Shown piece after piece: positions 44,458 through 64,000 of a stretch of 64,000 nucleotides of DNA. A model generated the notes under the pieces. That model did not search any database and had not been told where the DNA came from. It was given only the letters and a program-made list of their open reading frames with translations. The stretch comes from Patescibacteria group bacterium. Lineage in GTDB: Bacteria; Patescibacteriota; Patescibacteriia; Patescibacteriales; JBAZCA01. Both the position numbers and the translations under genes were made by a program. How positions within the stretch are numbered: position 1 is the first letter of the stretch; each line of letters begins with the position of its first letter. The stretch lies in contig JBAZUL010000006.1 in NCBI GenBank assembly GCA_041661405.1, positions 1,681-65,680 of the forward strand. The letters are read 5' to 3'.

Positions 44458-44535
44458 CAATGCTGAAGAATTTAAAATTTTAAATTTAAAATTAATCATC
44501 AATCGTTTCGCATTATTCTGTTATTGAATTCATTT

Positions 44536-46104: not shown

Positions 46105-46108
46105 TTTC

Positions 46109-47707
<1,599 letters not shown>

Positions 47708-47780
47708 TCTCCAATCTGCAATTATCAATCTACAATTGATGATGCGCAAAATGAGAGTAGATTGAAGATTGACTGATTGA

Positions 47781-48209
47781 TTATAGATAGTATCCGATTA
47801 CGCTCACGAAGAATCCGATGGCCGCGCCGGCTAAGACCTGGGCCGGGGTGTGGCCGATTTTTTCCAGAAGCCTCGGATAATTGCGATCCAGTAGATCGTC
47901 TTCTTTTAAATCCCGGACTAAAACGTTTAAGACTTTTCCCTGGTCGCCTAAGTATTGCCGGAGACCGAACGCGTCCCGAATAATAAAAATCGCGAGAAAA
48001 AAACTCAGGGCGAACGACGGCGAATAAAAGCCCTGTTCCAGTCCCATGATGGCGGCGAGCGATACGACAATGGCCGAATGCATGGAGGGCATGCCGGAAT
48101 AAGCGACAAGACTGCGCCAGTTCCATTTGTAGCGGTTGGAGGGGATGAATAATTTCGCCAGCTGGGCGATCGTGCCGGCAATCACCGGAAAGAGAAGGAT
48201 GTTGTACAT
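47781..48209 (-). CDS. Divergent PAP2 (DUF212) family membrane protein
   Basis: YSGMPSMHSA motif and 4 TM helices. This is the only convincing minus-strand gene. Confidence 0.75.
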   Translation of the reverse strand: MYNILLFPVIAGTIAQLAKLFIPSNRYKWNWRSLVAYSGMPSMHSAIVVSLAAIMGLEQGFYSPSFALSFFLAIFIIRDAFGLRQYLGDQGKVLNVLVRDLKEDDLLDRNYPRLLEKIGHTPAQVLAGAAIGFFVSVIGYYL

Positions 48210-48218
48210 AATTATTTA

Positions 48219-48316
48219 GAACTGGCTGGCATTTTAAGTTTTTTCACTGCGGAAATGTCCCGCCCTTCGCGAAGGGCGGGATCCTCGCTTCAAAAACTTA
48301 AAATACCAGCCAGTTC
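48219..48316. repeat. Nested inverted repeat (25-nt outer arms, perfect 24-nt GC-rich inner palindrome)
   Basis: gaactggctggcattttaagttttt (48219..48243) pairs with aaaaacttaaaataccagccagttc (48292..48316) with 1 mismatch. The inner palindrome tcccgcccttcgcgaagggcggga is at 48258..48281. Confidence 0.9.
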
Positions 48317-48377
48317 TTGGGTTAATGTGTCCTTGTATATTATATCATAATATCTGAAAAACACGCCATGGTCTTAA

Positions 48378-48405
48378 TTGAAAATTTTATTAAATCAGCT
48401 ATAAT
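48378..48405 (+). promoter_or_regulatory. Putative promoter TTGAAA-16-TATAAT placed for a leaderless mltG mRNA
   Basis: The -10 at 48400..48405 ends 6 nt before ATG 48412. No SD is possible. Confidence 0.45.
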
Positions 48406-48411
48406 AGAATT

Positions 48412-49467
48412 ATGCTTAAAAAAATATTTTTAATTATTATCATTGCTACCGCCGTATTTTTCGGCCTGGCCTGGAAAAAATTAAATAATCCGGCCGATCC
48501 GGACGGCGCGGACCGGATCTTTACGGTGAGCGCGGGCGAAGGCACCAACCAAATCAGCGACAATTTATTCGGCCAAAAATTGATTAAATCAAAACTGGCT
48601 TTTGAAACTTACGTTTGGGCCCGGGGCTGGGAAGGGACGATTAAGGCCGGAGAGCACACGCTCAGCCCGAAATTAAATATCCGGGAAATCGCGCAATCGC
48701 TCGTCAGCGGCAACACAATTTCCAGCGAAGAAAAAATAATTGTCAAAGAAGGCTGGAATATTGGGGATATTGATAGTTATTTAAGCGAAAAAAACATTTT
48801 AGCTTCCGGTGAGTTTAAGAACGTAGTTGACAAAATCTCCAATTTCCCCGCCCGAGACGGATCCGCCCCGGGCGGACAATCTTCAATTCCCAAATCCTAT
48901 ATTTTTTTAAATGCTCTTTCGGAAAATACCAGCCTTGAAGGTTATTTATTTCCTGACACCTATCGCGTTTTTAAGAATTCTTCGGCCGAAGAAATTGCCG
49001 GGAAAATGCTCGCTAATTTTGACCGGAAGCTTAATCCGGAATTGCGGGTCGAAATTGAAAGACAGGGAAAAAGCGTCCATGAAATAATCACCATGGCTTC
49101 GCTCATAGAAAAGGAAGTCCGGGCGACGGAAGACATGAAAATCGTTTCCGGGATTTTCTGGAACCGGATTAATAACGGCCAGGCGCTCCAGTCCTGCGCC
49201 ACGCTGGCTTATGTTCTTGGGGTCAATAAGCCCCAGTACAGCGAAGCGGACACAAAAATAGATTCCCCTTATAATACTTATCAAAACAAAGGCTTGCCGC
49301 CCGGGCCGATCGCCAATCCCGGAATGAACGCGATTAAGGCGGCGATTTATCCGACTGCTAACGATTATAACTTTTTTCTTACCGCCGAAGTAAACGGCGA
49401 AAGCAAAACCATCTATTCAAGAACTTTTGAAGAGCACGTCCGGAATAAGGGGATTTACCTTAAATAG
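48412..49467 (+). CDS. mltG: Endolytic murein transglycosylase MltG (YceG-like)
   Basis: N-terminal TM helix and YNTYQNKGLPPGPIANPG. Confidence 0.9.
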   Translation: MLKKIFLIIIIATAVFFGLAWKKLNNPADPDGADRIFTVSAGEGTNQISDNLFGQKLIKSKLAFETYVWARGWEGTIKAGEHTLSPKLNIREIAQSLVSGNTISSEEKIIVKEGWNIGDIDSYLSEKNILASGEFKNVVDKISNFPARDGSAPGGQSSIPKSYIFLNALSENTSLEGYLFPDTYRVFKNSSAEEIAGKMLANFDRKLNPELRVEIERQGKSVHEIITMASLIEKEVRATEDMKIVSGIFWNRINNGQALQSCATLAYVLGVNKPQYSEADTKIDSPYNTYQNKGLPPGPIANPGMNAIKAAIYPTANDYNFFLTAEVNGESKTIYSRTFEEHVRNKGIYLK

Positions 49468-49539
49468 GATTTAAGGCATTTCCTATAATCAGGCGGTTCG
49501 GTTTGTGGTTTTAAACCTCCCTATGTTATAATAACGCAT

Positions 49540-51840
49540 ATGAAGATGAAATTTTTCATCGGTTTTTTAATGGTGGCAAGCATCTTCGCGATGCCTGCCG
49601 GTTTTAGCGTTTTTGGCATCCGCGCCGGGAAAGGAAAAGACGTGTTTTTAAAACCGGCAATCGCGGCCGCGGCCGGCGGCAATACGCAACCGGGTAAGGC
49701 CGAATATGAAGACCATGAAATAATCGTTAAATTTAGAAGCGCCGAAAAGCCGGTAAAAGTCTTTTTGGCCCCGGACGAAAAATTGAAAGACGCGATAGAG
49801 GAATATGAAAAAAAACCCGGCGTGGAATACGCCGAATTGAATTATAAATACCGGGCTTCCATCATCCCTTCGGATACTTATTACGGCGAGCAGTGGTATT
49901 TAAAAAAAATAAAAGCTCAGGAGGCCTGGGACCTTAAGCGGGAAAGCCCGAACGTCGTCATCGCGATCATTGATTCCGGAGTCCAGATCAGCCATCCGGA
50001 TTTAAAGGAAAATATTTGGGCCAATAGCGGTGAAATTCCCGCCAACGGGATTGACGATGACCGCGACGGTTATATTGATGATATTAATGGCTGGGATTTT
50101 GTCAATAACGAGGCTGATCCTTCGCCAAAATTTCAGGAAGGCTTTACGGAAGGCGGGATTAACCACGGGACCATTGTCGCGGGAATCGCGGCCGCTTCCG
50201 GAAATAACGCCACGGGCATTGCCGGAGTTACCTGGAGAGCGAAAATAATGCCTTTAAAAGTTTTAGGGGACGCCGGCGAAGGGTCAACCCTGAATGTTGT
50301 CCGCGCTATAGATTACGCGATAAAGAAAGGCGCTAATATCCTTAATTTCAGTTTTGTCGGTTTCGGCTACAGCGAAGCTTTGAATGAAGCTATTGGCCGG
50401 GCGCACGCGGCCGGCCTTATTATCGTGGCGGCGGCCGGTAACGAGTCTGACGATGGAGAAGGGTATTTTTTAGACGACACTCCCATGTATCCGGTCTGCC
50501 ACGACGGTCCGGCCGGTAAAAATTGGATAATCGGCGTGGCGGCGGTTGACGCGATAGACCAAAAATCAAAATTTTCCAGCTACGGATTTAAGTGCATTGA
50601 CATAGCCGCGCCGGGCGAGAGCGTTTTCGGAACAGTGGTTTACGCTCCGGAAAAATCAATCGGCGAAAAGAGCTTTAATAAATATTATGACGGCTATTGG
50701 TCCGGAACATCAGTAGCCGCGCCTCAAGTTTCCGGCGCTATTTCTTTACTGCTTGAAGCCGATTACGAGTTGGGGAGAGACAAAATAATCGCGCTACTGC
50801 TTGATAACAGCGATAACATCAGCCGGGTCAATCCGGCGCACCTCGGCCAGCTTGGCCGGGGGCGGCTGAATGTCCTGAATTCAATGCGAATGGCGCTTTC
50901 GGGAGTGAGCGCTTTTAAAGGCGGAATCATGAGCGTCCCTTTTTCCGGCGCCGAGGCCAGCCTGAAAATTTCCGATAAGGACGGAAAAATAGAAGCTGAT
51001 TTTCCGGTTTTTGATCCGCTTTTCCGCGGCGGGGCGAATGTTACCGGCGGAGACATTGACGGCGACGGAAAAGATGAAATAATCGTTGGCCCTGGATCGG
51101 GCGGCGGACCGCATGTCCGGATTTTTTCCGCTGACGGAAAAGTCAGAGGACAGTTTTTCGCCTATGACAGCCGGTTTAGGGGCGGAGTGAATGTCGCGGC
51201 CGGAGACATTGACGCTGACGGAAAAGATGAAATAATCGTTGGCGCAGGACCGGGCGGCGGACCGCATGTCCGGATTTTTTCCGCTGACGGAAAAGTCAGA
51301 GGACAGTTTTTCGCCTATGACAGCCGGTTTAGGGGCGGAGTGAATGTCGCGGCCGGAGACGTTGACGGCGACGGAAAAGATGAAATAATCGTTGGCGCAG
51401 GACCGGGCGGCGGACCGCATGTCCGGATTTTTTCCGCTGACGGAAAAGTCAGGGGACAGTTTTTCGCCTATGACAGCCGGTTTAGGGGCGGAGTAAGAGT
51501 GGCGGCGGGGAACGTTTATAATTCAGCCCGCAAATTCGGCGACCAGATTATAACCGCTCCCGGTTCCGGACTTATCGCGGAGATTAAAATTTTTGATAAT
51601 AAAGCCGGTCTTTTAAGCCGTTTTAACGCTTTTAACAGTTATTTTCGCGGCGGAATAAGCGTTTCGGCCGGCGACCTGGACGCCGACGGCCGGAGCGAAA
51701 TAATCGCCGGCGCCGGACCGGGCGGCGCGCCCCACATCCGTTCTTTTGATTCGGATGGCAATCTTTTCGGCTCCTATTACGCGCTGGCGGCTGATTTTAA
51801 CAAAGGGGTGAACGCGGGATACGTTAAGATCGGGAAATGA
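49540..51840 (+). CDS. Secreted subtilisin-like (S8) protease with C-terminal FG-GAP/VCBS-like beta-propeller repeats
   Basis: Triad contexts IDSGV, HGTIVAGI and GTSVAAPQVSG. The 51-aa repeats read GDIDGDGKDEIIVGxGxGGGPHVRIFSADGK...FRGGVNVAAGD. Confidence 0.85.
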   Translation: MKMKFFIGFLMVASIFAMPAGFSVFGIRAGKGKDVFLKPAIAAAAGGNTQPGKAEYEDHEIIVKFRSAEKPVKVFLAPDEKLKDAIEEYEKKPGVEYAELNYKYRASIIPSDTYYGEQWYLKKIKAQEAWDLKRESPNVVIAIIDSGVQISHPDLKENIWANSGEIPANGIDDDRDGYIDDINGWDFVNNEADPSPKFQEGFTEGGINHGTIVAGIAAASGNNATGIAGVTWRAKIMPLKVLGDAGEGSTLNVVRAIDYAIKKGANILNFSFVGFGYSEALNEAIGRAHAAGLIIVAAAGNESDDGEGYFLDDTPMYPVCHDGPAGKNWIIGVAAVDAIDQKSKFSSYGFKCIDIAAPGESVFGTVVYAPEKSIGEKSFNKYYDGYWSGTSVAAPQVSGAISLLLEADYELGRDKIIALLLDNSDNISRVNPAHLGQLGRGRLNVLNSMRMALSGVSAFKGGIMSVPFSGAEASLKISDKDGKIEADFPVFDPLFRGGANVTGGDIDGDGKDEIIVGPGSGGGPHVRIFSADGKVRGQFFAYDSRFRGGVNVAAGDIDADGKDEIIVGAGPGGGPHVRIFSADGKVRGQFFAYDSRFRGGVNVAAGDVDGDGKDEIIVGAGPGGGPHVRIFSADGKVRGQFFAYDSRFRGGVRVAAGNVYNSARKFGDQIITAPGSGLIAEIKIFDNKAGLLSRFNAFNSYFRGGISVSAGDLDADGRSEIIAGAGPGGAPHIRSFDSDGNLFGSYYALAADFNKGVNAGYVKIGK
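51049..51507 (+). repeat. Three near-identical 153-bp tandem repeats inside the S8 protease gene
   Basis: Units start at 51049, 51202 and 51355 (ggagacattgac...). They differ at only a handful of positions. Confidence 0.9.
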
Positions 51841-51884
51841 ATTTTTAAATTATAAATTTTAATTAAATTTTAAATTATCTGCAT

Positions 51885-52898
51885 ATGTCCCATCGCGCGA
51901 TATTCGGCAAGAAAAATATTTTAGTGGCCGGCGGCGCCGGCTTTATCGGCTCCCATCTTTGCGAAGAGCTTATTAAAAACGCCAAGGTTATCTGCCTGGA
52001 TAATTTTTCGACCGGGGATGAAAGGAACATTGACCATCTTTTATCCAATCCGGATTTTGAATTTGTCCGCCACGACATTACCGAACCGCTTGAGCTTGAA
52101 AGCCTGCCGGAATTGGAGAAATTCAGGATTAAATTCCAGGGCGTCCAGGAAATTTACAACTTGGCTTGCCCGGTATCGCCGAAGAATTTCGCGGAAAACA
52201 AGCTGGCCATGCTGATTGCCAACTCCTACGGGACGAAAAACCTCCTGGATCTCGCGATAAAGCACGGCGCGAAATTCATCCAGTTTTCCTCATCCGTCGT
52301 TTACGGCCAAAGCCGGGGATCCGGGGAAAAAATCAGCGAGGACGACCTTGGACAGGTGGACGCGGTCTCTTCCCGCAGTTCCCATGAAGAAGGAAAAAGG
52401 TTTTCCGAGACGCTAGTCGCCAATTACCGCGAAATCCACGGCCTGGATACAAAAATCATCCGGGTGTTCCGGACTTACGGCCCGAGAATGAGATTAAACG
52501 ACGGGCACATGATTCCCGATTTTATCGTTAACGCCTTGGACGGAAAAGACCTCGTCATCCACGGCGGCGAAGATTTTGCTTCTTCGTTCTGCTATGTTTC
52601 CGACTTGGTTGACGGGGTGATTAAGATTGCCGAATCCGGGATGAACGTGCCGGTTAACCTTGGATCGGAGATTGAAGTTAAGTTCCGCGAAGTGGCGGAA
52701 AAAATTATCAAGGCGCTTGATTCGGGTTCCAAAATAACTTATGATGATTCAATTAAATACCTTACTCCGGCCTGCCTGCCGGATACTTCGCGCGCCCGCC
52801 AGGAGTTCGGCTGGCTGCCGGTCGTTACGCTTAACAAAGGCATTGAAAAAACCATTGATGATTTAAGGGCGAGCAAAGGACTTTTGCGGGCGGGATAA
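51885..52898 (+). CDS. UDP-glucuronate decarboxylase-like extended SDR (NAD-dependent epimerase/dehydratase family)
   Basis: VAGGAGFIGSHLCEEL Rossmann motif. Close overall resemblance to UXS/RmlB-type enzymes. Confidence 0.75.
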   Translation: MSHRAIFGKKNILVAGGAGFIGSHLCEELIKNAKVICLDNFSTGDERNIDHLLSNPDFEFVRHDITEPLELESLPELEKFRIKFQGVQEIYNLACPVSPKNFAENKLAMLIANSYGTKNLLDLAIKHGAKFIQFSSSVVYGQSRGSGEKISEDDLGQVDAVSSRSSHEEGKRFSETLVANYREIHGLDTKIIRVFRTYGPRMRLNDGHMIPDFIVNALDGKDLVIHGGEDFASSFCYVSDLVDGVIKIAESGMNVPVNLGSEIEVKFREVAEKIIKALDSGSKITYDDSIKYLTPACLPDTSRARQEFGWLPVVTLNKGIEKTIDDLRASKGLLRAG

Positions 52899-52913
52899 GC
52901 TCATGATTAATCT

Positions 52914-53576
52914 ATGAAAGTATTTTGTGTCATCCCCGCTTTTAACGAAGAGGAAACAATCGTGGAAGTAATAAAATCCGTCAAGCCGTTCGCGGACGGA
53001 GTGATTATCGTTGACGACGGTTCGGTTGACAAGACTTTTGAGCTGGCTAAGGCTCAGGGGGTTATCGCGCTTAAACATGTAATTAACCGCGGCCAGGGCG
53101 CCGCCTTAGAGACCGGCAACCGATACGCTATAAAAAAAGGCGCGGACATTATCGTCCATTTTGACGCCGACGGGCAATTTTCAGCCGAAGAAATAAATGA
53201 GCTTGCTTCTCTGATAAAATCCGGGCAGGCGGATATTGTTTTTGGTTCGCGGTTTTTAGGCCGGGAATCCAACATGCCGGCTTTTAAAAAACTGATTATA
53301 ATGCCTTTGGCCAGGTTTATGAACCGGATATTATTCGGGGCGGATTTAAGCGATCCCCAATGCGGCTTCCGGGCGATGAGTGCCAAAGCCGTCCGGGAAA
53401 TCCGGATAAAAAACGACGGTATGGCTCACTGCTCGGAAATAATCGGCAAAGCTTTTCGCTCCGGCCTGAAAATAAAAGAAGCGCCGATAACGGTCGTTTA
53501 CCGCGAGTTCGGCCAGAACATGTCCGGCGGAATAAGGATTATAAAGGATTTGATATATTCAAAATTCATCGGATGA
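52914..53576 (+). CDS. Family-2 glycosyltransferase (polyprenyl-phosphate sugar transferase-like)
   Basis: VIPAFNEEETI, IIVDDGSVDKT and FDADGQF. Confidence 0.8.
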   Translation: MKVFCVIPAFNEEETIVEVIKSVKPFADGVIIVDDGSVDKTFELAKAQGVIALKHVINRGQGAALETGNRYAIKKGADIIVHFDADGQFSAEEINELASLIKSGQADIVFGSRFLGRESNMPAFKKLIIMPLARFMNRILFGADLSDPQCGFRAMSAKAVREIRIKNDGMAHCSEIIGKAFRSGLKIKEAPITVVYREFGQNMSGGIRIIKDLIYSKFIG

Positions 53577-53580
53577 AAAT

Positions 53581-53907
53581 ATGATCCAACAAATTTTAGC
53601 GATTGCCGTCATCCTTTTTTTCATCGCGCGGCTTTATTGGCAGAGGAAAAAGGACGAGATAAGCCGGGCGGAGCTTTCATTCTGGCTGGCTTTTTTTCTT
53701 TTAGCCGGGCTGGCGATTGTTTTCATAAAATATATTGACGAGTTCGTCGCCGGTCTCGGATTTTCCGCCACCGGCATCAACGTCCTTTTTTACGCCGCCG
53801 TGGTTCTTCTTTTTTACGTTGTTTTCCGCCTGCGCCTCCGCCAGGAAAAAATAGAAAGGAACATAACGAAAATCGTCCGCGAAATCGCGCTGAAGGGGAA
53901 GGAGTAG
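53581..53907 (+). CDS. Small membrane protein (DUF2304-like)
   Basis: 108 aa, 3 TM helices, in the typical position after a GT2 gene. Confidence 0.55.
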   Translation: MIQQILAIAVILFFIARLYWQRKKDEISRAELSFWLAFFLLAGLAIVFIKYIDEFVAGLGFSATGINVLFYAAVVLLFYVVFRLRLRQEKIERNITKIVREIALKGKE

Positions 53908-53942
53908 GGGGTTGAATATTACCTGGTTTCAGTAAAAGCGCT

Positions 53943-54611
53943 ATGAAAAACACCATCAAAAACCAAATAATCATATATGAAGGCGATGATGGACAATCTC
54001 ATGTAGAGGTTAGGTTTGAAGGTGAAACAGCTTGGCTTTCGCAACGACAAATGTCGGAGCTTTTTGATTGTACTCCGGAAAATATATTATTGCATCTTAA
54101 AAATGTTTTTGAAAGCGGTGAATTAGATGAAAGGGCAACTGCTAAGGAATCCTTAGTAGTTCAAAAAGAAGGAAATAGAGCCGTAAATAGAACCATAAAA
54201 TTTTATAATTTGGATGTCATAATTTCCATAGGTTACCGCATAAATTCTTTGCGTGGGACGCAATTTCGAATTTGGGCAACGCAAAAAATCAAAGAGTATA
54301 TTATCAAAGGTTTTACGATCGATTCGGATCGATTAAAAAATCTTGGCGGCGGGAATTACTGGAAAGAATTGCTTGACGAGATTCGAGATATCCGTAGCAG
54401 TGAAAAGGTGCTTTATCGCCAAGTGCTGGATTTGTATGCGACCGCTATTGATTACGATCCGCAAGCCAGCGAGTCTTTTGAGTTTTTTAAAACCGTTCAA
54501 AACAAACTTCATTTTGCGGCTCACGGGCATACGGCGGCAGAAGTTATTGTATTGGCCGGGCAGGGGAGGGAAAAGTTCAGCCAGGCGGTTCATCGCAGAA
54601 TCGCGCTGTAG
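53943..54611 (+). pseudogene. RhuM-family protein, 3'-truncated
   Basis: IIIYEGDDGQSHVEVRFEGETAWLSQRQMSELF...FRIWAT...HGHTAAEVI matches RhuM. After that point the sequence turns unrelated and stops, about 100 aa short of the length I recall for the family. Confidence 0.6.
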
Positions 54612-54642
54612 CTGATTTTTCAACGGCTCGCAGGAAACGGCC

Positions 54643-54666
54643 GATGAGCCGTTGAAGGGAGCGAGT
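54643..54666 (+). repeat. 24-nt junction motif GATGAGCCGTTGAAGGGAGCGAGT, copy A
   Basis: Identical to 55599..55622. There are 3 differences from 59485..59508. Confidence 0.9.
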
Positions 54667-54890
54667 TTCTAAAAGCAGCTTGTTTTTCGGACGTTGTTTT
54701 GCTACTATTTTAATAGTAGAGGACGGGCTGGCTAGACGCCTTATATGGAATAAAACTCCCGCCGGAGTTTCCCGCTTTTTTATCTTGGCCGGCTCGCCAA
54801 TGAAAAAGCTGATTTTATTTTGTAAATATTCGGGGTATTTCACTTCGCTGAATCATTTCAGGGATATGAGATCGTCCCAAAAAGGGAGTT

Positions 54891-55244
54891 ATGAAATTAG
54901 TGGATAGAAAAATCCCGGTTCACGAGCTTAAAGAAATGGCCTCAAAGATGTACGGAGATCTGGTTAAGGCCGTAGTTGACATTGAAAAAGAAATTATGTC
55001 AGTAGACGCGGAGCTCCATGCCGACGAAGAAAAGTTTTTACTGGAGAACGGGTCAAAGCAGGAAAATTTGTGGGGAATTAATTTGTATCCGGATACTAAA
55101 GGGGAAAATTTTTTAGAATACGACTCCATGATAAATCTGCGGCCGTCTCAGGGCAACCGCAGCCGGGGAGTGGATGATGAAAAGATAAGGGAAAGGATAC
55201 GGGAGGTCGTTCATAAACTAATTGAAAATGGCATACCAGCATAA
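54891..55244 (+). CDS. Conserved hypothetical (resembles DUF5674-type proteins, from memory)
   Basis: 117-aa ORF with blocks VDAELHADEE...LWGINLYPD...INLRPSQGNRSRG. Confidence 0.45.
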   Translation: MKLVDRKIPVHELKEMASKMYGDLVKAVVDIEKEIMSVDAELHADEEKFLLENGSKQENLWGINLYPDTKGENFLEYDSMINLRPSQGNRSRGVDDEKIRERIREVVHKLIENGIPA

Positions 55245-55560
55245 AAAACAAGCCGGAGGAGAGTGGAGCAAGTCTTCCTTTTTTTCCCAGATGGCCAATA
55301 TCGGTTCGGAAGTCGGGAGGGCCATTAACTGGCGCCGCAAAGAAAACAAAGCCTACGCCCGAGGCGCGTTTGAACGGTCTTTGGAATTATTTGATCTGAC
55401 CGCGGCTGATCCGAGGAATATTGGGCGCTTAAAAGAAATTCTTCGAGCCCGGGAGGCTTGGGTGGATTTTTTCGCCTATGACAATGAATATAATTCCACG
55501 GCCGGGCAATGGGAAAAATATTTTTTAGCCTTTAATTACGCGGCGAACTTGAACCGTTAA
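55228..55560 (+). CDS. Hypothetical helical protein
   Basis: ATG 55228 overlaps the upstream ORF by 17 nt. The last 23 nt are shared with ORF 59162..59446. Confidence 0.4.
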   Translation: MAYQHKKQAGGEWSKSSFFSQMANIGSEVGRAINWRRKENKAYARGAFERSLELFDLTAADPRNIGRLKEILRAREAWVDFFAYDNEYNSTAGQWEKYFLAFNYAANLNR

Positions 55561-55855
55561 TTTAAATCCGGCCGGTTTACAAAATAAAGGCGGGGCTTGA
55601 TGAGCCGTTGAAGGGAGCGAGTCTTTGATAGTATTATTGCCGGGTTTCAGTAAAAGCGCTATAATAAAACAAAAAAACTTAATACAGCTTAATTAATTCA
55701 TAGCCCTAAGGAGGTATGAAAAACAATTTTTTAAAGCGTTGCGGGAACATGCCCCGCAAGGCAAAGCATGCCATTAAAATCAATCTGTCCATTCCCGGAA
55801 AAGTTTTACTGACCCTCGCTATCGCGGGGTTTTTTGTTTTTGGGGGAGTTTTTGG
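55538..55855 (+). repeat. Segmental duplication, copy 1 (junction repeat + promoter + SD + first ~47 codons of lipase-like gene)
   Basis: Aligns to 59424..59761 with about 8 substitutions and one 20-bp indel. Contains TTGCCG-17-TATAAT (55637..55665) and the aaggagg SD. Confidence 0.9.
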
Positions 55856-57977
55856 TTTAGCGATTTTCTGCGTCCCCGAAGCCCGGGCCGAAGGCATAAT
55901 GATTTCAGAGGACACGGTCTGGGAAAAAGGCGAAGTCCGGGTAGTTGACGACCCCATGAACGGCCTCGCGATTATGCCCGGAGTTAAGCTCACGATCAAT
56001 CCGGGCGTGATTATTAAGCTCGGAAAAAATACGCCGATTCTCGCCATGGGCGAGCTGGATATTAAGGGAAGCGAAACCGAGCCGGTGATAATCACCTCGC
56101 TGAAAAATGATACCGTTGGCGGCGATACCAACGGAGACGGAACGGCGACCGCCCCGATGCCGGGCGACTGGTACGGGATTATGGCTAACGGTCCGGACTC
56201 TAAAATCAATATTGACTACGCCGAAATAAGCTATGGCGGCGGGTATGAGGATATGACGGTCACCCTTATTGCCGCGTTTCAGATCAGCGGTTTTAATATA
56301 GCCCATAGCTCGTTTATCCATGACGCGGGAGTGATTTTTATCAACGAAGTTCCTGACCCTAAAATAAATTATAGCAATATTTACCTTGAGGAAGACTATT
56401 GCCGGGAAGAAGAAGGGGAAAGAATCTGCGAACACCTGTCGCTATTTTTCTTAGGATCCGAGCCGCTGGACGCTATAAATAATTATTGGGGTCACGCGGA
56501 AGGCCCGTCGCTGGAAGGGGCGGAGGACGCTAAAGGCATATTTATTTCCGGTAACGTCAATTACGAGCCATTTTTGACCGAACCCTGGGAGCCGGAGGTT
56601 GATGATGTTTTAGATCCTGTCATTATTGTTCCGGGGATTATGGGGAGTTGGAATGTTTCGGGCAGATGGCAGATTGATCCGATTTTCCATACTTATGATA
56701 ATTTAATGGAAGCGCTGATCGCGGCCGGGTACAAGGAAGATTCTTTACTTGAACCGGAACCGAATCTGTTTACTTTTTCTTACAATTGGCGGAATGACAA
56801 CAATGCTACGGCCGGCCTGCTCAGAGAGAAAATAGAGGAAGTAAAAAACCTGACCGGCGCGGATAAAGTTGATTTAGTCGCTCACTCAATGGGCGGCCTT
56901 ATCGCGCGTTCATATATTCAGGGGAGCGATTATCAGAATGACGTGGATCAACTTGTGTTTTTAGGAACGCCGCATTTGGGTTCGCTTGAAAGCTATTTGA
57001 AGTATGAAGGGGGAGACGGTTTTTTTAGCACAGGTGAAAAATTGACTAAATATTTATTCCAAATTGAAGCCGCCACCCAAGGCTACCTCAATTTAACCGA
57101 CTATATCCGGGCAGAAGTATTGTCAGTAGAGCAGTTACTGCCGGTTTTTAATTATCTAAAAGACAAACAGCCGGATAATTCCTGGCAATCGCGGCCATAC
57201 CCGCTAAATTATCCGCAGAATAATTTTCTGGAAAATTTAAACAGCCAAAGCGGGGTTGATTTACTGAAAGAGCGGGTGAATATAACCAATATAGTCAGCG
57301 ATTTAGGAAGCGAAAGCACCCTGAATTACCTCCGGGTAGTACCCGATCCTGATCCGGGCGACAACAAATGGCAAAGCGGCTATCCGGAAAATCTTGAGAG
57401 TAGCCTTGACAGCCTGGAAAAAGGCAACGGCGACAGCACAGTGCCGCTACTGAGCGCCGATAGTTTAAGCGGAGTAGAAATAATAGAAACTAATAATTCG
57501 GATCATGAAAACCTGCCGACAATCATGCAGAAAGAGATCATAAAAGTTTTAACCGGAAAAACGCCGGATAACTATTTTAACAGTAAAATCACTTCAACCA
57601 TAAAAAAATGGTTTTTTTTCCGGGTCTATTCTCCGGTTGATTTCGTAATTATCGCTCCGGACGGAAGAAAGATCGGCAAGGACATAAACAACAACGCGGA
57701 AATAAACGAAATTTCCGACGCGTTTTACAGCGGTTTTAGCGGCGAAGCCGAGTTTGTTCTGATTCCTAATCCCGAAGACGGAGAATATAAAGTGAGTGTC
57801 CAAGGCGTTGATAACGGCGGGCAGTACAAACTCTCGGCCAGTCTGATTAACGATGAAAAAGAAAGCGACAAAGAATTCAGCGGGACTATTACTGCCAATC
57901 AAATTCAGGAATTTAACCTGAATTACGCCGAAGAAGCCGAAGACCCGATCAGCGAGCTGGATGGAACCCGAAGATGA
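55716..57977 (+). CDS. Secreted/anchored lipase-like alpha/beta hydrolase (LCAT/PGAP1-like), N-terminal beta-helix-like region
   Basis: Signal anchor, DPVIIVPGIMGSW, and the nucleophile elbow VAHSMGGLIAR. Confidence 0.7.
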   Translation: MKNNFLKRCGNMPRKAKHAIKINLSIPGKVLLTLAIAGFFVFGGVFGLAIFCVPEARAEGIMISEDTVWEKGEVRVVDDPMNGLAIMPGVKLTINPGVIIKLGKNTPILAMGELDIKGSETEPVIITSLKNDTVGGDTNGDGTATAPMPGDWYGIMANGPDSKINIDYAEISYGGGYEDMTVTLIAAFQISGFNIAHSSFIHDAGVIFINEVPDPKINYSNIYLEEDYCREEEGERICEHLSLFFLGSEPLDAINNYWGHAEGPSLEGAEDAKGIFISGNVNYEPFLTEPWEPEVDDVLDPVIIVPGIMGSWNVSGRWQIDPIFHTYDNLMEALIAAGYKEDSLLEPEPNLFTFSYNWRNDNNATAGLLREKIEEVKNLTGADKVDLVAHSMGGLIARSYIQGSDYQNDVDQLVFLGTPHLGSLESYLKYEGGDGFFSTGEKLTKYLFQIEAATQGYLNLTDYIRAEVLSVEQLLPVFNYLKDKQPDNSWQSRPYPLNYPQNNFLENLNSQSGVDLLKERVNITNIVSDLGSESTLNYLRVVPDPDPGDNKWQSGYPENLESSLDSLEKGNGDSTVPLLSADSLSGVEIIETNNSDHENLPTIMQKEIIKVLTGKTPDNYFNSKITSTIKKWFFFRVYSPVDFVIIAPDGRKIGKDINNNAEINEISDAFYSGFSGEAEFVLIPNPEDGEYKVSVQGVDNGGQYKLSASLINDEKESDKEFSGTITANQIQEFNLNYAEEAEDPISELDGTRR

Positions 57978-58644
57978 TGTCCCTCCGGTTATCGCGATTA
58001 GCGCTCCGGCCGATAACGCCGAGTATTTGCATAGCGGAAAGCTGGTAGTTGATTACGTTGTCTCTGACGATTTTTCAGGCATCGCATCATCAACGATTAA
58101 ACTGGACGGCGGGGAAATATTTAGTTCAGAAAATTCAGGACAGTCAACAACGACCATTGATTTATTTTACCTAAAAACCGGAGAGCATACGATGGAAATC
58201 ATCGCCGAAGACAAGGCCAGGAATATTGCCAGTTCAACGGTGAATTTTAGAATCATTGCCACCCCGGACAGCATGATTTCGGACATAAAAAGGCTCTATG
58301 ATTTAAGGTGGATAACTGACCGGACAATATCAAAGATTTTAATCAAAGAGATTGAGGAAATAAAATGGCGGCTCAGGCTGACGGACGAAGCGAAAAAGCT
58401 CATTTTAAAAGCCATTGAGAAAACCGAAAAAAACCGTTTTCTTCCGAAAAAACTCAAGGCTAAGATGATTGAGAAATTTAATGAGGAACTTTTGCGGCTT
58501 GACCGGGAAAGTGAAAAGAAACTCAATATTGTTTATGATCGGATTGAGCGGTCTTTGGGCAAGTATATAAAGAGAGGGTTAATTAACCAGGAGGCTTATG
58601 ATATAATATTGGATAGCGTTAATTTTTTAAGAAATAATTTGTAA
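57961..58644 (+). CDS. C-terminal module of the lipase-like protein, encoded in the +1 frame (split gene or frameshift)
   Basis: Colinear with the last ~220 aa of the 1293-aa paralogue: DLFYLKTGEHTMEIIAEDKARN vs DLFYEKTGEHRINIIAEDNAGN, and both end ...VNFLRNNL / VNYLRDNL. Confidence 0.6.
   Translation: MEPEDDVPPVIAISAPADNAEYLHSGKLVVDYVVSDDFSGIASSTIKLDGGEIFSSENSGQSTTTIDLFYLKTGEHTMEIIAEDKARNIASSTVNFRIIATPDSMISDIKRLYDLRWITDRTISKILIKEIEEIKWRLRLTDEAKKLILKAIEKTEKNRFLPKKLKAKMIEKFNEELLRLDRESEKKLNIVYDRIERSLGKYIKRGLINQEAYDIILDSVNFLRNNL
58351..58398 (+). repeat. 48-bp perfect direct repeat, copy 1 (inside CDS)
   Basis: attgaggaaataaaatggcggctcaggctgacggacgaagcgaaaaag is identical to 59032..59079. Confidence 0.95.
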
Positions 58645-58648
58645 ATGT

Positions 58649-59044
58649 ATGACTAATAATAAACGAAGCAAAAAAATTGTTAATCTACTGCTATCTTTTA
58701 GCGGAGCAATAGTATTTTCATTAATGTTTTTATTTGTATTTAATAATTTTTACGTTAGCCAATTTAACCCGGTGATGTTTAATAGTATGTTTTCATTGTG
58801 GAGTTACGGGTTTGACATAAAGTTAAATAGTTTTATCTTTGCATATTCTTTCTTCCTCCCCCTGTTTATAACGATATTCGTTTCCAAAAGGCAATGGCTG
58901 GCTTGGTTGATTCTGATTTTTATTCCTTTTACCATGGTTTTAGTTGGCGGCCAAAAGCATTTGCTCTGGTTTTTTATCTTTACTGTCGCCGGCGGTTTGA
59001 TTGGCTGGCTGATAAAAATGATGATTGAGAAATTGAGGAAATAA
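58649..59044 (+). CDS. Hypothetical polytopic membrane protein (AT-rich)
   Basis: 131 aa, 4 hydrophobic helices. The 3' end runs into repeat copy 2. Confidence 0.4.
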   Translation: MTNNKRSKKIVNLLLSFSGAIVFSLMFLFVFNNFYVSQFNPVMFNSMFSLWSYGFDIKLNSFIFAYSFFLPLFITIFVSKRQWLAWLILIFIPFTMVLVGGQKHLLWFFIFTVAGGLIGWLIKMMIEKLRK

Positions 59045-59079
59045 AATGGCGGCTCAGGCTGACGGACGAAGCGAAAAAG
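59032..59079 (+). repeat. 48-bp perfect direct repeat, copy 2 (mostly non-coding)
   Basis: Identical to 58351..58398. Confidence 0.95.
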
Positions 59080-59161
59080 AGGATTAAGGCATAATTCCGG
59101 TAATTCGGCGCATCGGTCAAAGGTTAAGAAATGTGATAATTAAATCACTTAAAATAATTCC

Positions 59162-59446
59162 ATGCATAACAAAAAAGGGGGCAGTAAACAGGTTGCGTTT
59201 TTTGAGGGCCGGAGTATCCGGCGGATTTGGGATGGAAAAAAGGAGAAGTGGTATTTTTCGGTGATTGATGTTATTTCTGCTCTTACCGAGCAGATAGATT
59301 TTAAAAAAGCGCAAAGCTATTGGACTACCCTAAAAAGCCGTTTAAAACAGGAAGGGAATGAGTCTGTCACAAAATGTGACAAACTGAAAATGCAATCCTC
59401 CGATGGTAAATATTACGCTACTGACGCGGCGAACTTGAACCGTTAA
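59162..59446 (+). CDS. BRO-N / prophage-antirepressor-like domain protein (short)
   Basis: FFEGRSIRRIWDGKKEKWYFSVIDVISALT resembles the Bro-N domain. Confidence 0.5.
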   Translation: MHNKKGGSKQVAFFEGRSIRRIWDGKKEKWYFSVIDVISALTEQIDFKKAQSYWTTLKSRLKQEGNESVTKCDKLKMQSSDGKYYATDAANLNR

Positions 59447-59761
59447 TTTAAATCCGGCCGGTTTACAAAATAAAGGCGGGGCTTAATGAGCCGTTGAGCG
59501 GAGCGAGTCTTTGATAGTATTATTGCCGAGTTTCAGTAAAAGCGGTATAATAAAACAAAAAAACTTAATACAGCTTAATTAACCCGCCTGCCGGCCGGCA
59601 GGTTCATAACCCTAAGGAGGTATGAAAATTAATTTTTTAAAGCGTTGCGGGAACATGCCCCGCAAGGCAAAGCATGCCATTAAAATCAATCTGTCCATTC
59701 CCGGAAAAGTTTTACTGACCCTCGCTATCGCGGGGTTTTTTGTTTTCGGGGGAGTTTTTGG
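59424..59761 (+). repeat. Segmental duplication, copy 2
   Basis: See copy 1. Promoter TTGCCG-17-TATAAT at 59523..59551. Confidence 0.9.
59583..59602. repeat. 20-bp GC-rich insertion containing a perfect 16-bp palindrome CCTGCCGGCCGGCAGG
   Basis: Present here but absent at the orthologous point of copy 1 (between 55692 and 55693): cagcttaattaa|ttcata. Confidence 0.9.
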
Positions 59762-62700
59762 CGCGCAGCCGGTTCTGGCTGATTCATCGCCGGACAATCT
59801 CTGGCATTTTAATGAATGTTCGGGCGCTTCCGCGGCTTCATTCCAGGGAACTGACAACCTGAATTTGGGAGGTAGCGCCTGGAGCGTTGGCAAATGGAAC
59901 TGCTCCATGGAATTATTTTGGTCTTACGCTCCCATGAAAGTTAATTTTAATGAGCCGCTATCGGCCGGCGATCTTACTGTGAGTGCGTGGTTCCGTTTTC
60001 CCCATGATAATTCCCGCTTTTCTTTCCGGCTGGTTGACGCGTCCGGCAAAGCGGCCAAGCTGTCAATTGACCAATATTATGCTGACGCGGAAAACCTTAC
60101 CGGTTCTTTTCTCCGTCTGCCGCCGGTCTGGCCGGCTGACGACGGCTGGCATCAGGCGGTTTTTTCAATCAATTCGTCCGAAGGGCAATGGAGAATCTAC
60201 TTTGATGGCTCAGAAGCTATTAGTTCAAGCCTTGAAGATTATGATTTTTCCCAATTTTCCCGCCTTGAAATCGGGACTAACAATAATTACACCCTGGTTG
60301 ACGAAGTGGCTGTCTGGCGCCGAACTCTGAGCGGAACGGAAATAAATGAAATTTACGGCTTAAACCAGGAAATGCCTCCGGCCGCTCCGATTATTCCAGC
60401 CGCGGAAAAAACAATGATTCATCTTTGGCAGTTTGACGAAGGAGACGGGAGCGCAATCCATGACGCCGCCGGAGAAATCGATTTAAGCCAAAACGCTGCT
60501 TTTGGCGAAGGAAAATGGGGAACAGGACTTTTACAATCTTGGCCTGCCGACCAGAGGATTGACGCCAATTTTAATGAACCGGTAAACGCCAGGGACTTGA
60601 GCCTTGAATTTTGGTTTAAAAATTCAAGCCACCCGAACGAAGGCCGCGGGTCAATATATCTCTCCGGCACGGGAGGAAATTTCGGCATCCGGCCGTCCCC
60701 ATCCGCCCTAACCGTCTATACGCCTTACGGCAATAAGAATTTTGGCGCCCGACCAGAACTGGCGGATAATAACTGGCATTATTTTACTCTGGTTTTTAAT
60801 TCTCATGATTACCGCTATGATTTTTACATAGACGGCCAAAATATTTATTCCGAAGAAAGCCTTCCGCTCGCGAATTCGGTTTTTGACCAAATTCACATCC
60901 GCGGCGAAAATTTTCCCTATTCTATTGACGAACTCGCCATCTTTCAAGGCGCTCTTTCGCAGGATGAAATACGGGAATATTACAACTCAAACGAGCCCCG
61001 AAAAAAATCCACCCTTGATCCGGTGATTCTTGTTCCGGGGATAATGGGGAGCTATCTTGTTAGGGAAAATACTTACGAAGAAATTTGGCCGAGAATTTCC
61101 ACCATGCTCATTGATCCCTGGGACGGGTATCTTAATGAGCTGGCAATGGGCGCGGACGGGATGCCTAATCCAGAGAGCGGCAATTTACAGGCCGCTGATA
61201 TTTTCCGTAATTTGTACGGAGAAGATTTTTTTGCCGGTTTGATAAACGAATTGACAGCGAGCGGCTATGAAGAGGGCGTGAATTTATTTGTTTTTCCCTA
61301 CGATTGGCGGCTGGATCTAAATATTATCGCCGGTGATGACAGCAGACTGCCGCGAACAGAAACTTTAAAAGAAAAAGTAGAGTCAGTAATAACCCAGACC
61401 GGGGCTGAAAAAGTTGACATTGTAGCTCATAGTATGGGCGGCTTAATTGCCAAACTCTACATGCAAAAATACGGCGGCGATAAAGTTAATAAGTTTGTTG
61501 ACATAGCGACGCCGCACTTAGGTTCAGCATCCGCGCTAAGAACATTAATGTATGGAGATGATTTGGGATTTAGAATTAAGAAGCTATCAATTCTAAACCT
61601 CAATGAAATAAAATCCATTTCACAAAACGTCCCTTCAATTTATCAGCTGCTACCAAGTCAAAACTATTTTGACGATAGTGACCCCAATTATGCCTATTAC
61701 ATCTACGACATGTTTGATTTTGATAATAATGGTGTTAAGGGGCGGCTGGATTATGGCCAATCCATTGAATTTCAGACTAATAGCGGCCGCAATCTGAATT
61801 TACTGCCCTTAAATAATCAACTGCATCAGGAAATTGACAATTTTAATTCCGAATCTTTTAGAATAAAAACTTATAATATCGTCGGTTGCGGCCGGCCGAC
61901 GATCGGGCAGATATATATCCTCAATAAGGAAAAATCCGGTGGATATGAATATGGTTTAAAATACATAAACGGCGATGGAACAGTGCCTTTGCGAAGCGCC
62001 GAATATTTATCCGCAACCAACGTTTACTATAGTACCGGAGCTGACCACCCGTTTTTGCCGAGTTTTAGCGGAGTTAGGCAATTGGTCTCATCAATATTGC
62101 ATGGAGAAGAAGGTAGCTTTAGCTTCTCACAGCATGCCAATATCCGGACGGACACCAACAGTTGCGCTCTAAACGGAACACAGATTAGCTTTCATAGCCC
62201 GATTGATCTGCATGTTTATGATGATAACGATAATCACACCGGACCGGACGAGAATGGCGATATTGAATTAAATATTGACGGCGCGGCTTACGATATAATT
62301 GACGAAAACAAATTTATTTTTCTTCCGTCCGGACATGATTATAAAGTCGCCGGAAAGGCGAGCGATGCCGGGAATTTTAATGCGAGAGTCCAGAAAATAG
62401 AAAACGGAGAAACAGTATCAACCGCTTATTTTAACGAAGTGCCGCTCAGCTTAGTGAGTACGGCCGTGAAAATAGATATTTCCGATGAACAAGCCAGCTA
62501 TGCGCTTAAAATAGATCAGGACGGAGACGAAGTTTTTGAAGAAAGCGAACAGCCCGACTCAATACTGAACTCCGAAGAATCGCTGGATTTTATCCCTCCG
62601 GATACCGCGATAAGCTTAGAGGGGGTAAGAGGAAATGAAAGCTGGTTCGTCTCCGAAGTCGCAGTAGATCTCGCCGCCGAAGACGATAATTCCGGAGTAT

Positions 62701-63503
62701 TGAAAACCGAATACAGTCTGGATAACGGCCAAAGCTGGACAGAATACCAAAGCCAATTTACGCTGTCGCTGGAAGGGGAAAACAAGTTAATCTATTCTTC
62801 AGCCGACAGGGCCGGAAATAGGGAAGCGGAAAAGGAAATTGTGATAAAAATTGACAAAACCGGGCCGGAAATACTCGTATTGGTTCCGGACGAGATCAGT
62901 CATGACAAAAAATTTAGTATTGAATATCTGGCTGATGATAATATCTCCAGCATTGCCACTGACACGATCGAGATATATTTGGACGAAAAATTGCTATCAT
63001 CCGGAACGATTGATCTATTTTACGAAAAAACTGGCGAACATCGGATAAATATAATCGCCGAAGACAATGCCGGAAACATAACCGAGGAAATAAAAATTTT
63101 CAGCGTAATTACCGACATTCAGGGAACGATTTCGGACGTAAACCGGGCTTATCTTGAAAAAATGCTAAACGAAAAAGCTAAAAAAGAACTGGTAAAAGAC
63201 CTAAAAAAAATAGAGGATTATATTAAAAAATACGGCAAAAGAGAAGAAAAAAGAGATAAAAGACAGGAGAATATATTAAATAGGTGCGTTAAGAAAAAGG
63301 GGAAAACCTGGTGCGAAAATAAGCTGGGAAAATTGTTTACGAAAATCAATTTCCGGCTGAATGTAATCCATGAAAAAATCGTAAAGTTGCAATACAGCCT
63401 GATCTTAAAAGAGCTTGAACTTTACCGAAAAAAGGGCTGGGTGACGGAAACAGGGTATGGTATAATTAAGGAGGACGTTAATTATTTAAGGGATAATTTA
63501 TAA
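59622..63503 (+). CDS. Large secreted protein: 2x LamG-like jelly-roll + LCAT/PGAP1-like lipase + Ig-like modules + helical tail
   Basis: LamG-like signatures LWHFNE...VDEVAVWRRTLSGTEINEIY and LWQFDE...IDELAIFQGALSQDEIREYY. Lipase signatures DPVILVPGIMGSY and VAHSMGGLIAKLY. Confidence 0.8.
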   Translation: MKINFLKRCGNMPRKAKHAIKINLSIPGKVLLTLAIAGFFVFGGVFGAQPVLADSSPDNLWHFNECSGASAASFQGTDNLNLGGSAWSVGKWNCSMELFWSYAPMKVNFNEPLSAGDLTVSAWFRFPHDNSRFSFRLVDASGKAAKLSIDQYYADAENLTGSFLRLPPVWPADDGWHQAVFSINSSEGQWRIYFDGSEAISSSLEDYDFSQFSRLEIGTNNNYTLVDEVAVWRRTLSGTEINEIYGLNQEMPPAAPIIPAAEKTMIHLWQFDEGDGSAIHDAAGEIDLSQNAAFGEGKWGTGLLQSWPADQRIDANFNEPVNARDLSLEFWFKNSSHPNEGRGSIYLSGTGGNFGIRPSPSALTVYTPYGNKNFGARPELADNNWHYFTLVFNSHDYRYDFYIDGQNIYSEESLPLANSVFDQIHIRGENFPYSIDELAIFQGALSQDEIREYYNSNEPRKKSTLDPVILVPGIMGSYLVRENTYEEIWPRISTMLIDPWDGYLNELAMGADGMPNPESGNLQAADIFRNLYGEDFFAGLINELTASGYEEGVNLFVFPYDWRLDLNIIAGDDSRLPRTETLKEKVESVITQTGAEKVDIVAHSMGGLIAKLYMQKYGGDKVNKFVDIATPHLGSASALRTLMYGDDLGFRIKKLSILNLNEIKSISQNVPSIYQLLPSQNYFDDSDPNYAYYIYDMFDFDNNGVKGRLDYGQSIEFQTNSGRNLNLLPLNNQLHQEIDNFNSESFRIKTYNIVGCGRPTIGQIYILNKEKSGGYEYGLKYINGDGTVPLRSAEYLSATNVYYSTGADHPFLPSFSGVRQLVSSILHGEEGSFSFSQHANIRTDTNSCALNGTQISFHSPIDLHVYDDNDNHTGPDENGDIELNIDGAAYDIIDENKFIFLPSGHDYKVAGKASDAGNFNARVQKIENGETVSTAYFNEVPLSLVSTAVKIDISDEQASYALKIDQDGDEVFEESEQPDSILNSEESLDFIPPDTAISLEGVRGNESWFVSEVAVDLAAEDDNSGVLKTEYSLDNGQSWTEYQSQFTLSLEGENKLIYSSADRAGNREAEKEIVIKIDKTGPEILVLVPDEISHDKKFSIEYLADDNISSIATDTIEIYLDEKLLSSGTIDLFYEKTGEHRINIIAEDNAGNITEEIKIFSVITDIQGTISDVNRAYLEKMLNEKAKKELVKDLKKIEDYIKKYGKREEKRDKRQENILNRCVKKKGKTWCENKLGKLFTKINFRLNVIHEKIVKLQYSLILKELELYRKKGWVTETGYGIIKEDVNYLRDNL

Positions 63504-63530
63504 TTTAGCCAACTAATTAAGAAAAATTTT

Positions 63531-63851
63531 ATGAAACTAATAAAAGAAATAAGTAATAAAAATGCAAAAATTAATTATTCGTTAATCAGCCTATTGTTTT
63601 GGGTTGTTGTAGTAATTTTGCCGTATAAGTATTTCTATTTATTAAGTGATAATGGCAGCTTGTTAATAGATTATATGATTGTGATTCCTCCCGTAATGGT
63701 GTTTTTAGCTTATGCTTTAATAAAACCAAAAGAAAAATTAAACAGAAATTATTTTTTAATAGTAGGCTTAATAATGCCTTTAATTTTTCATTATGCTTAT
63801 TTAGCCTTTATGATTATGGAAGCAATAAAAGGTTTTCGTCCTTCTCTATAA
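63531..63851 (+). CDS. Hypothetical membrane protein (AT-rich)
   Basis: 106 aa, 3 hydrophobic helices. Positionally analogous to 58649..59044. Confidence 0.35.
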   Translation: MKLIKEISNKNAKINYSLISLLFWVVVVILPYKYFYLLSDNGSLLIDYMIVIPPVMVFLAYALIKPKEKLNRNYFLIVGLIMPLIFHYAYLAFMIMEAIKGFRPSL

Positions 63852-63866
63852 AGTGATGAAAAAATT

Positions 63867-64000
63867 ATGAAATTAAATCTATTCAATCGTTTGAGCCTGT
63901 TTATTTTATTCTCTTTATTTTTTAGTGTTATTTTAATTCTTATTATCGAAAAAACAAAATTTTCACATATAAATTTAGCGCCATTTGGCGGGTACAGCTG
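63867..64000 (+). CDS. Hypothetical membrane protein, 3' end outside window
   Basis: ATG 63867 opens a frame (MKLNLFNRLSLFILFSLFF...) that runs to the window edge. Confidence 0.25.
   Translation, partial: MKLNLFNRLSLFILFSLFFSVILILIIEKTKFSHINLAPFGGYS

Follow-up and report, generated by a model that had tools for sequence, protein, structure and literature searches.

Site-specific systems carry one and the same core at each of their boundaries, and the attC sites of integrons have ends of the consensus RYYYAAC / GTTRRRY. Homology-facilitated illegitimate recombination usually replaces or deletes recipient DNA. It has been described in transformable bacteria (de Vries & Wackernagel 2002; Prudhomme et al. 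2002, as summarised in PMC6382021), where the foreign end joins at 3-10-bp stretches (PMC6382021). Nothing pertinent was found in the literature on integrons or islands of the candidate phyla radiation (CPR). The locus compared here with these systems lies in a 64-kb stretch (hereafter the window) of a Patescibacteria metagenome-assembled genome (MAG), within a source contig of 78 kb. Between a GT2-DUF2304 gene pair and a secreted-lipase gene (lipase 2), it contains accessory genes and gene remnants separated by partial copies of a junction sequence (copies 0, A, B and C, from left to right), all on the plus strand. The original prediction was of one reiterated ~65-bp element delimiting a cassette-like array; instead, three pairs of sites repeat three different segments, and the junction is probably neither mobile nor recognised by a recombinase. 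The right half of the junction is predicted to be the promoter of the lipase operon, and the locus was probably built by three nested insertions, with each of which another part of the target would have been duplicated by homologous or microhomology recombination. No new mobile-element or cassette system is revealed; the events are of a known kind, that of genomic islets and segmental duplications.

The locus resembles a segmental duplication of a promoter plus 5' end in its positionally conserved hexamers with 17-nt spacing, followed by a strong Shine-Dalgarno (SD) sequence, in a 5' module that is 97% identical between paralogs otherwise only 29% identical, and in its sharp borders, but differs in that the copy at 53917 is stranded, decayed and overlaps the start codon of a pseudogene. 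It may resemble homology-facilitated illegitimate recombination, with a conserved stretch (the h-region of a signal peptide) as the possible anchor at one end, 4-7-nt microhomology (ACGC / ATTACGC) at the other, and genes for ComEC and a pilus ATPase in the genome, but differs in its target duplications of 24-318 nt, which need an extra step.

Sequences shared by pairs of sites

The repeats consist of three distinct, partly overlapping pieces, each common to one pair of sites, and are not four copies of one junction. Copies 0 and B share a promoter piece only (31-34 nt at 53917 / 55635), copies A and B share a left piece only (24-33 nt at 54643 / 55599), and copies B and C share a 318-nt block (55538-55855 / 59424-59761) that contains both the left and the promoter pieces. 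The 24-mer GATGAGCCGTTGAAGGGAGCGAGT is exact at 54643 and 55599 and recurs with 3 changes at 59485, as had been reported, with none expected by chance from shuffled sequences; its distance to TATTATTGCC is 9 nt, not the 7 nt given previously. Allowing up to 2 mismatches, the motif on the right, GGTTTCAGTAAAAGCGCTATAAT, is found at 53925, 55643 and 59529, and an exact 20-mer is common to 53925 and 55643; the chance expectation is none for either.

Copy 0 (53917-53950, plus strand) comprises the right piece only and matches copy B at 30 of 34 positions, the exact 20-mer included. A degenerate version of the whole junction had been placed at 53891-53945, of which only the right 31-34 nt are homologous. 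The best local alignment between the left half of copy 0 and that of copy B (CG[C/T]TGAAGGG) scores 15, barely more than the 14 that marks the 90th percentile for all the 70-nt windows tested across the 64 kb, and the left-half similarity at 53891 is thus at chance level. The left half was also considered as a diverged 3' end of the DUF2304 gene, with which it is collinear and in frame (E-x-L-K-G-stop), yet this alignment too scores at chance level. A 15-mer at the stop of the RhuM remnant (54594-54608) agrees with the 3' end of DUF2304 in 13 of its 15 nt, a weak similarity equalled in 6 of 100 shuffles.

Copy A (54619-54675, plus strand) comprises the left piece only: 24 nt are exact (54643-54666), the next 9 nt match at 5 positions, and similarity extends to 54675. 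Upstream of these, an inverted exact 11-mer, GAGCCGTTGAA (54619-54629), pairs with copy A as a hairpin of 13-14 bp, and the resulting perfect 43-nt stem-loop (fold z = -2.9) is present at copy A only. The copy B junction folds no better than shuffled sequence (z = +1.2 and +0.8 for the plus and minus strands, respectively), and z is -1.3 for copy 0.

Neither half of the junction recurs elsewhere in the 64-kb window, and approximate matching across all the retrieved loci detected the left piece in no relative. The halves of the junction were also scanned as exact patterns in IMG/VR, JGI metagenomes and GTDB representative genomes; apart from contigs of this population, the hits all lay in unrelated sequence and are taken as chance (1 viral, 1 metagenome and 3 GTDB-genome contigs, the contexts being a deformylase gene of high GC, a contig from soil, and MAGs of Syntrophobacteraceae, Muribaculaceae and Porphyromonadaceae). 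A dispersed repeat or portable module was rejected on these results.

The native promoter and the insertion behind it

The relatives compared at this locus are L014, L018/L019 and L021; L023 (at another locus) and L024 carry lipase-1-type genes, and L001 and L010 are independent assemblies. The left flank is conserved: the GT2 and DUF2304 genes identified by Pfam (52914-53576 and 53581-53907, plus strand) keep the same arrangement as in L014, L018 and L021 as far as the stop codon of DUF2304. The GT2 protein is 89% identical in amino acid sequence to that of L014 and 81% to that of L018/L019, and the figure for L021 is 72%.

The right half of the junction is best described as a putative sigma-70-type promoter of the downstream secreted-lipase operon. 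The sequence TTGCCG-17-TATAAT reported earlier is indeed present at 55637-55665 (copy B) and 59523-59551 (copy C), with 10 of 12 hexamer positions matching, and in both copies these good hexamers are accompanied by a perfect SD sequence, AAGGAGG; in copy 0 (TTACCT-17-TATGAA, 7 of 12 matches) both hexamers are decayed. Directly after the DUF2304 stop, at the same distance as copy 0, L014 and L018 have TTGACC-17-TATAAT, and in L021 the DUF2304 stop is followed by TTGATG-17-TATAAT and then by a lipase-1-type gene. At another locus, L023 (a different genome from the same sample) has TTGACC-17-TATAAT followed by a coiled-coil open reading frame (ORF), a lipase-1-type gene and a transmembrane (TM) ORF. 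The position of the hexamers and their 17-nt spacing are conserved in L014, L018, L021 and L023 while the spacer sequences differ, a pattern expected of the phylogenetic footprint of a real promoter. Since relatives carry a promoter right after the DUF2304 stop, copy 0 is evidently the native promoter of the lipase operon, in place at the orthologous position and now decayed. Its former -10 hexamer overlaps and supplies the ATG of the RhuM remnant, as had been noticed from the sequence.

In L014 and L018/L019 the gene order is GT2, DUF2304, promoter, a coiled-coil ORF of 118-143 aa, a LamG-LCAT lipase of ~1285 aa and small ORFs. The DNA of L014 follows that of the window to 53910, and the match is taken up again at 59603, where 19 nt remain before the ATG of lipase 2; the interval is 535 bp in L014 versus 5.7 kb in the window. 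By this comparison, ~5.7 kb (53911-59602) appear to be extra in the present lineage. The proposed recombination hot spot or portable promoter module finds partial support: DNA has accreted between DUF2304 and the lipase, and the right half of the junction has the features of a promoter, but "portable" overstates what is apparently a resident promoter locally duplicated.

The coiled-coil ORF of the relatives (106-143 aa, ending in ...AHDRFEERIGVLEEKTGISPVSV) is located at 3627-4058 in L014, 11076-11432 in L018 and 7655-7975 in L023, and together with the lipase and the TM ORF it makes up a conserved three-gene unit; tblastn found no match to it in the window.

The lipase genes and the 318-nt duplication

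The duplication shared by copies B and C spans from 23 nt before the stop of a 110-aa ORF to 140 nt into the lipase coding sequences. Copy B (55538-55855, plus strand) consists of the final 23 nt of the ORF for 110 aa, then the left piece (55599-55631), the -35 (55637-55642) and -10 (55660-55665) hexamers, the SD sequence AAGGAGG (55708-55714) and the first 47 codons of lipase 1, which encode the signal peptide. Copy C (59424-59761, plus strand) has the left piece at 59485-59517 and the promoter at 59523-59551, followed by an additional 20 nt (59583-59602) and the signal peptide of lipase 2. Between the two there are 9 substitutions in 318 nt, and beyond either end the sequences no longer align. 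The 67-nt junction contains 5 of these substitutions (Fisher p = 0.02) and is the least conserved part of the duplication, suggesting that it is less constrained than the adjacent part coding for the signal peptide. The 20-nt insertion, in the 5' untranslated region (UTR) of lipase 2, is absent from copy B and from L014 and includes a 16-nt perfect palindrome, CCTGCCGGCCGGCAGG (59587-59602), which as a hairpin could affect translation or transcript stability.

Lipase-like gene 2 (59622-63503, plus strand; two LamG domains and LCAT) is orthologous to the genes found after DUF2304 in L014 (73% amino acid identity) and L018 (58%), its region being 82% identical to L014 in nucleotide sequence over 3.5 kb, and is evidently the native gene of the locus. 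Lipase-like gene 1 (55716-57977 and 57961-58644, plus strand; a beta-helix-type N-domain, LCAT/PGAP1 and Big_7 by Pfam) is split by a frameshift at 57961-57977 into ORFs of 753 and 227 aa, in L001 as well as in the window, whereas homologs without the split have 943-969 aa in one protein; the gene has probably become a pseudogene. Identity between the two lipases is only 29% in the catalytic region, against 97% for the first 37 residues. The 5' UTR and signal peptide of lipase 1 are 77% identical to those of L014 lipase 2, versus 59% to those of L023 lipase 1; this grouping of its 5' end with the lipase-2 type indicates that lipase 1 acquired the 5' module of the resident lipase 2.

On its right side the duplication stops where the signal-peptide h-region ends, a region conserved across lipase types (90% identity over 52 nt with L023). 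At the left border there is no flanking homology between the 110-aa ORF and the DinD-like remnant that stands in its place at copy C, only ACGC / ATTACGC microhomology. The left context of copy B is original (a complete 110-aa ORF) and the right context of copy C is native (lipase 2); the novel joints are thus 55855/55856, between signal peptide and lipase-1 body, and ~59420, between the DinD-like gene and the end of the ORF.

Downstream of lipase 1, the membrane ORF TM1 (58649-59044, plus strand) shares 50-55% identity with ORFs of 127 and 129 aa located after lipase 1 in L023 and L024. TM1 is thus the usual partner of lipase-1-type genes, which suggests that the two arrived as a unit. It is followed by a 52-nt scar (59028-59079, plus strand), a copy of part of the lipase-1 C-terminal coding sequence (58347-58398; repeat family D11, 98% identity). 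The first ~17 nt of the scar are the natural end of TM1, whose C-terminus is conserved in its homologs, and the fragment was joined via ~17 nt of similarity.

Other inserted genes

The segments between junctions had been described as unrelated cargo. This does not hold for the lipase genes, of which the second is evidently native. The RhuM remnant (53943-54611, plus strand) matches positions 1-141 of the 252 in Pfam Virulence_RhuM, with homology ending near 54557; it has no SD sequence upstream, and a full-length homolog has 346 aa. The GC content is 38.5% in this remnant and 40.5% in the DinD-like remnant, compared with 45.7% for the window.

The DUF5674 gene (54891-55244) and the 110-aa ORF (55228-55560), which has no Pfam family, overlap on the plus strand. 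The 110-aa ORF has 540 homologs, and the pair is found in unrelated contexts, its homology with other genomes being confined to 54886-55547. The left piece of the junction was considered as a flank of this module and rejected as such, homology to other genomes ending at the coding sequence. The module is widespread in Patescibacteria (for example L025 3300-4186, with a tRNA-like 3' end upstream, and L027 4664-5327) and possibly has a toxin-antitoxin-like or defence role.

The truncated DinD-like phage-type gene, an ORF of 94 aa (59162-59446, plus strand), matches positions 6-85 of the 274 in phrog_15286. It corresponds to the first ~86 residues (the N-terminal third) of 286-aa DinD-like viral proteins, ending after "...DGK..TD"; homology stops at ~59420, where the duplication border fuses it to the last codons of the 110-aa ORF. 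It had been taken for a BRO-N ORF, but has no match to Pfam Bro-N (PF02498) even at E = 10, and its sole Pfam hit is a weak, sub-threshold one to Csd3_N2. Homologs of RhuM and of phrog_15286 are both found on viral contigs. Judging from their truncation, the RhuM and DinD-like ORFs are evidently pseudogenes, and annotation should treat them, and probably lipase 1, accordingly.

Site-specific systems

Pfam searches of the non-overlapping ORFs of at least 80 aa across the 64-kb window found no recombinase, transposase or integrase domain, in agreement with the earlier statement that no integrase is visible, and no IntI. The window contains no tRNA or tmRNA, and no Rfam family reaches its gathering score there; with relaxed Rfam thresholds, the sole hit in 53800-59700 was to a snoRNA and is put down to chance (E = 0.38), and an RNA element or tRNA-derived att site was rejected. 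No terminal inverted repeats bound the blocks. A transposon, insertion sequence (IS) or miniature inverted-repeat transposable element (MITE) was likewise rejected, given the absence of terminal inverted repeats and dispersed copies and the variable length (24-318 nt) of the duplications.

Tandem accretion of integrative elements, with the junction as the att core of a tyrosine or serine integrase that has been deleted or lies outside the window, is distinctly unlikely. Direct repeats do flank each block, and as in genomic islets, lineage-specific accessory and phage-type genes with degraded content occupy a fixed intergenic spot; the RhuM and phrog_15286 cargo is of an island/phage type with homologs on viral contigs, and both genes are truncated, so that deletions could have taken the integrase. 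The core, however, differs from pair to pair, being the right piece for 0/B, the left piece for A/B and 318 nt reaching into two coding regions for B/C. Genomic islets and att-site accretion further differ from this locus, which lacks an integrase domain in its 64 kb and a tRNA or other classic target, whose repeat has no real copy in the viral, metagenome and GTDB collections beyond this population, and in which no part of the B/C duplication has diverged more than the junction. An integron-like cassette array with the junction as an attC-type folded site is scarcely credible, although the ORFs are all co-oriented, in an array of small blocks separated by a recurring sequence as in integron arrays and clusters of attC sites lacking integron-integrases (CALINs), and although the ends of the copy A hairpin (TTTCAAC ... 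GTTGAAG) each agree with RYYYAAC / GTTRRRY in 6 of 7 positions. Copies B, C and 0, three out of four, have no inverted partner and no attC-like hairpin, copy B folding like its shuffles; the 43-nt stem-loop of copy A is perfect and is without the bulged bases and spacing of attC; the window encodes no IntI; and the junction carries a putative promoter, the blocks consisting of 1-3 ORFs or pseudogenes and not of single promoterless ORFs.

Proposed history of the locus

Three nested insertions with duplication of different target stretches are reasonably probable as the history of the locus. In the first, a RhuM-bearing segment would have entered the promoter with duplication of 31-34 nt, which would have isolated the copy at 53917 upstream, where it decayed; the "left half" of the junction would then be the right end of this first insert. 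The second insertion would have brought the DUF5674/110-aa module and duplicated 24-33 nt of that right end (54643 / 55599). The third would have introduced the 3.6-kb segment 55856-59423, comprising the lipase-1 body, TM1, the lipase fragment and the truncated DinD-like gene, and would have duplicated 318 nt with the end of the 110-aa ORF, the left piece, the promoter, the SD sequence and the signal peptide. By such an insertion each lipase paralog would have obtained its own copy of the promoter, ribosome-binding site and signal peptide. The borders of the repeats, the position of the promoter sequence and its conservation, the insertion relative to relatives and the truncated or frameshifted cargo are all observed directly. 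The joins may have been made by RecA-type recombination on short conserved stretches (the h-region and the promoter) together with microhomology or illegitimate joining, or alternatively by replicative template switching, apparently with no site-specific recombinase involved. The scars (the 52-nt fragment, the inverted 11-mer, the truncated genes and the exchange of lipase modules) fit an error-prone history driven by homology and microhomology. The window also encodes a ComEC-type channel (27409-29049) and a T2SSE/PilB-type type IV pilus ATPase (37795-38838), which makes DNA uptake plausible as a route of insertion.

Several points weigh against this history. The order of events and their mechanism rest on one genome, and target duplications of 24-318 nt are not a textbook product of transformation by linear DNA; for these, a circular intermediate, the joining of sister chromatids or template switching during replication would be required. 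The source of the 33-nt left piece was not found in any relative. The searches for junction copies and recombinases cover 64 kb of the 78-kb contig, and the role of the promoter is read from its sequence. The contig of L021 ends inside lipase 1, and an ancestral tandem of lipase 1 and lipase 2, lost in L014 and L018, is therefore conceivable.

Such an ancestral tandem, with later gene conversion homogenising the 5' ends, independent entry of selfish genes and incidental copies 0 and A, is unlikely. It accords with the lipase-1-type gene right after DUF2304 in L021, whose contig ends before a possible second lipase, with the lipase-1-like C-terminal module and extra fragment in L014, which point to an earlier lipase 1, and with the lack of the coiled-coil ORF upstream of both lipases of the window, a shared derived state. 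Conversion, however, needs homology on both sides, and the left border of the 318 nt abuts the unrelated 110-aa ORF or DinD-like remnant; the lipase 1 of the window is closer to the L023 copy at another locus (70% amino acid identity) than to the L021 copy at this one (51%), and the exact 24-mer at copy A and 20-mer at copy 0 are left unexplained. A chimeric assembly of two loci through the 318-nt repeat is highly improbable. L001, from a second sample, is the same haplotype (99.8% identity across 43428-59383), and the independent assembly L010 matches 59500-64000 at 100%. Independent contigs thus stop at 59383 and start at 59500, and the link between them, with the join of the DinD-like gene to copy C, is present solely in the window's own contig. 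The first variant specific to copy C nevertheless lies just 66 nt from the border, inside one read or 141-mer; the synteny of L014 and L018 places lipase 2 downstream of DUF2304; and copies 0, A and B are all on one independent 29.8-kb contig (L001). For assembly, the lesson is that metagenome contigs break at the 318-nt repeat. The comparison of strains for presence or absence of cassettes that had been proposed yielded no variant without the insert, exact-protein look-ups of DUF2304, DUF5674, lipase 2 and the 94-aa ORF returning the same haplotype or nothing.

It is very unlikely that the promoter and 5' region behind DUF2304 form a preferred capture site in Patescibacteria, with target-duplicating insertion by a recombinase encoded elsewhere or independently of any recombinase; if so, each block would gain or leave a copy of the promoter, an integron-like outcome without integron machinery. 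Under nested insertion, the locus is a case of a streamlined uncultured Patescibacteria genome remodelling a surface/secreted-enzyme locus, in which a diverged lipase paralog would have been placed behind a copied resident promoter, ribosome-binding site and signal peptide, with fragments of phage and island genes remaining as scars.

Variation in the lipase family and neighboring genes

The C-terminal ~220 residues of the L014 lipase-2 ortholog are 59% identical to the lipase-1 C-terminal ORF of the window but 34% identical to its lipase 2, and a second fragment of the lipase-1 C-terminal module is also found in L014 (7479-7966 and 8491-8658, compared with 57961-58644 in the window); C-terminal modules thus appear to have been exchanged among lipase paralogs. 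The lipase-1-type gene of L021 has an in-frame TAG (11762-11764) where the window has TGG (Trp), which may represent a pseudogene, a sequencing error or recoding. Across the family, N-terminal domains (beta-helix, LamG, Kelch and others) are swapped on a core 60-72% identical to lipase 1, as in P0135, P0138, P0143 and P0146, which points to a secreted or surface enzyme that has diversified quickly across Patescibacteria. The locus therefore illustrates the shuffling of N-domain, C-domain and signal-peptide modules in a large lipase family of this group.

Beyond lipase 2, the membrane ORF TM2 (63531-63851, 25% GC) is absent from L014, another small indel; the lipase-2 stop of L014 directly adjoins sequence 95% identical to 63859-64000 of the window. 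On the other side of the locus, an S8 protease / FG-GAP gene (49540-51840) contains 3 tandem units of 153 bp (51028-51516) in the window and 2 in L001, giving products of 766 and 715 aa, respectively, a copy-number polymorphism between samples. Two tandem paralogs of cofactor-independent phosphoglycerate mutase (Metalloenzyme / iPGM_N; 44524-46104 and 46109-47707) are kept in L001 and L018.

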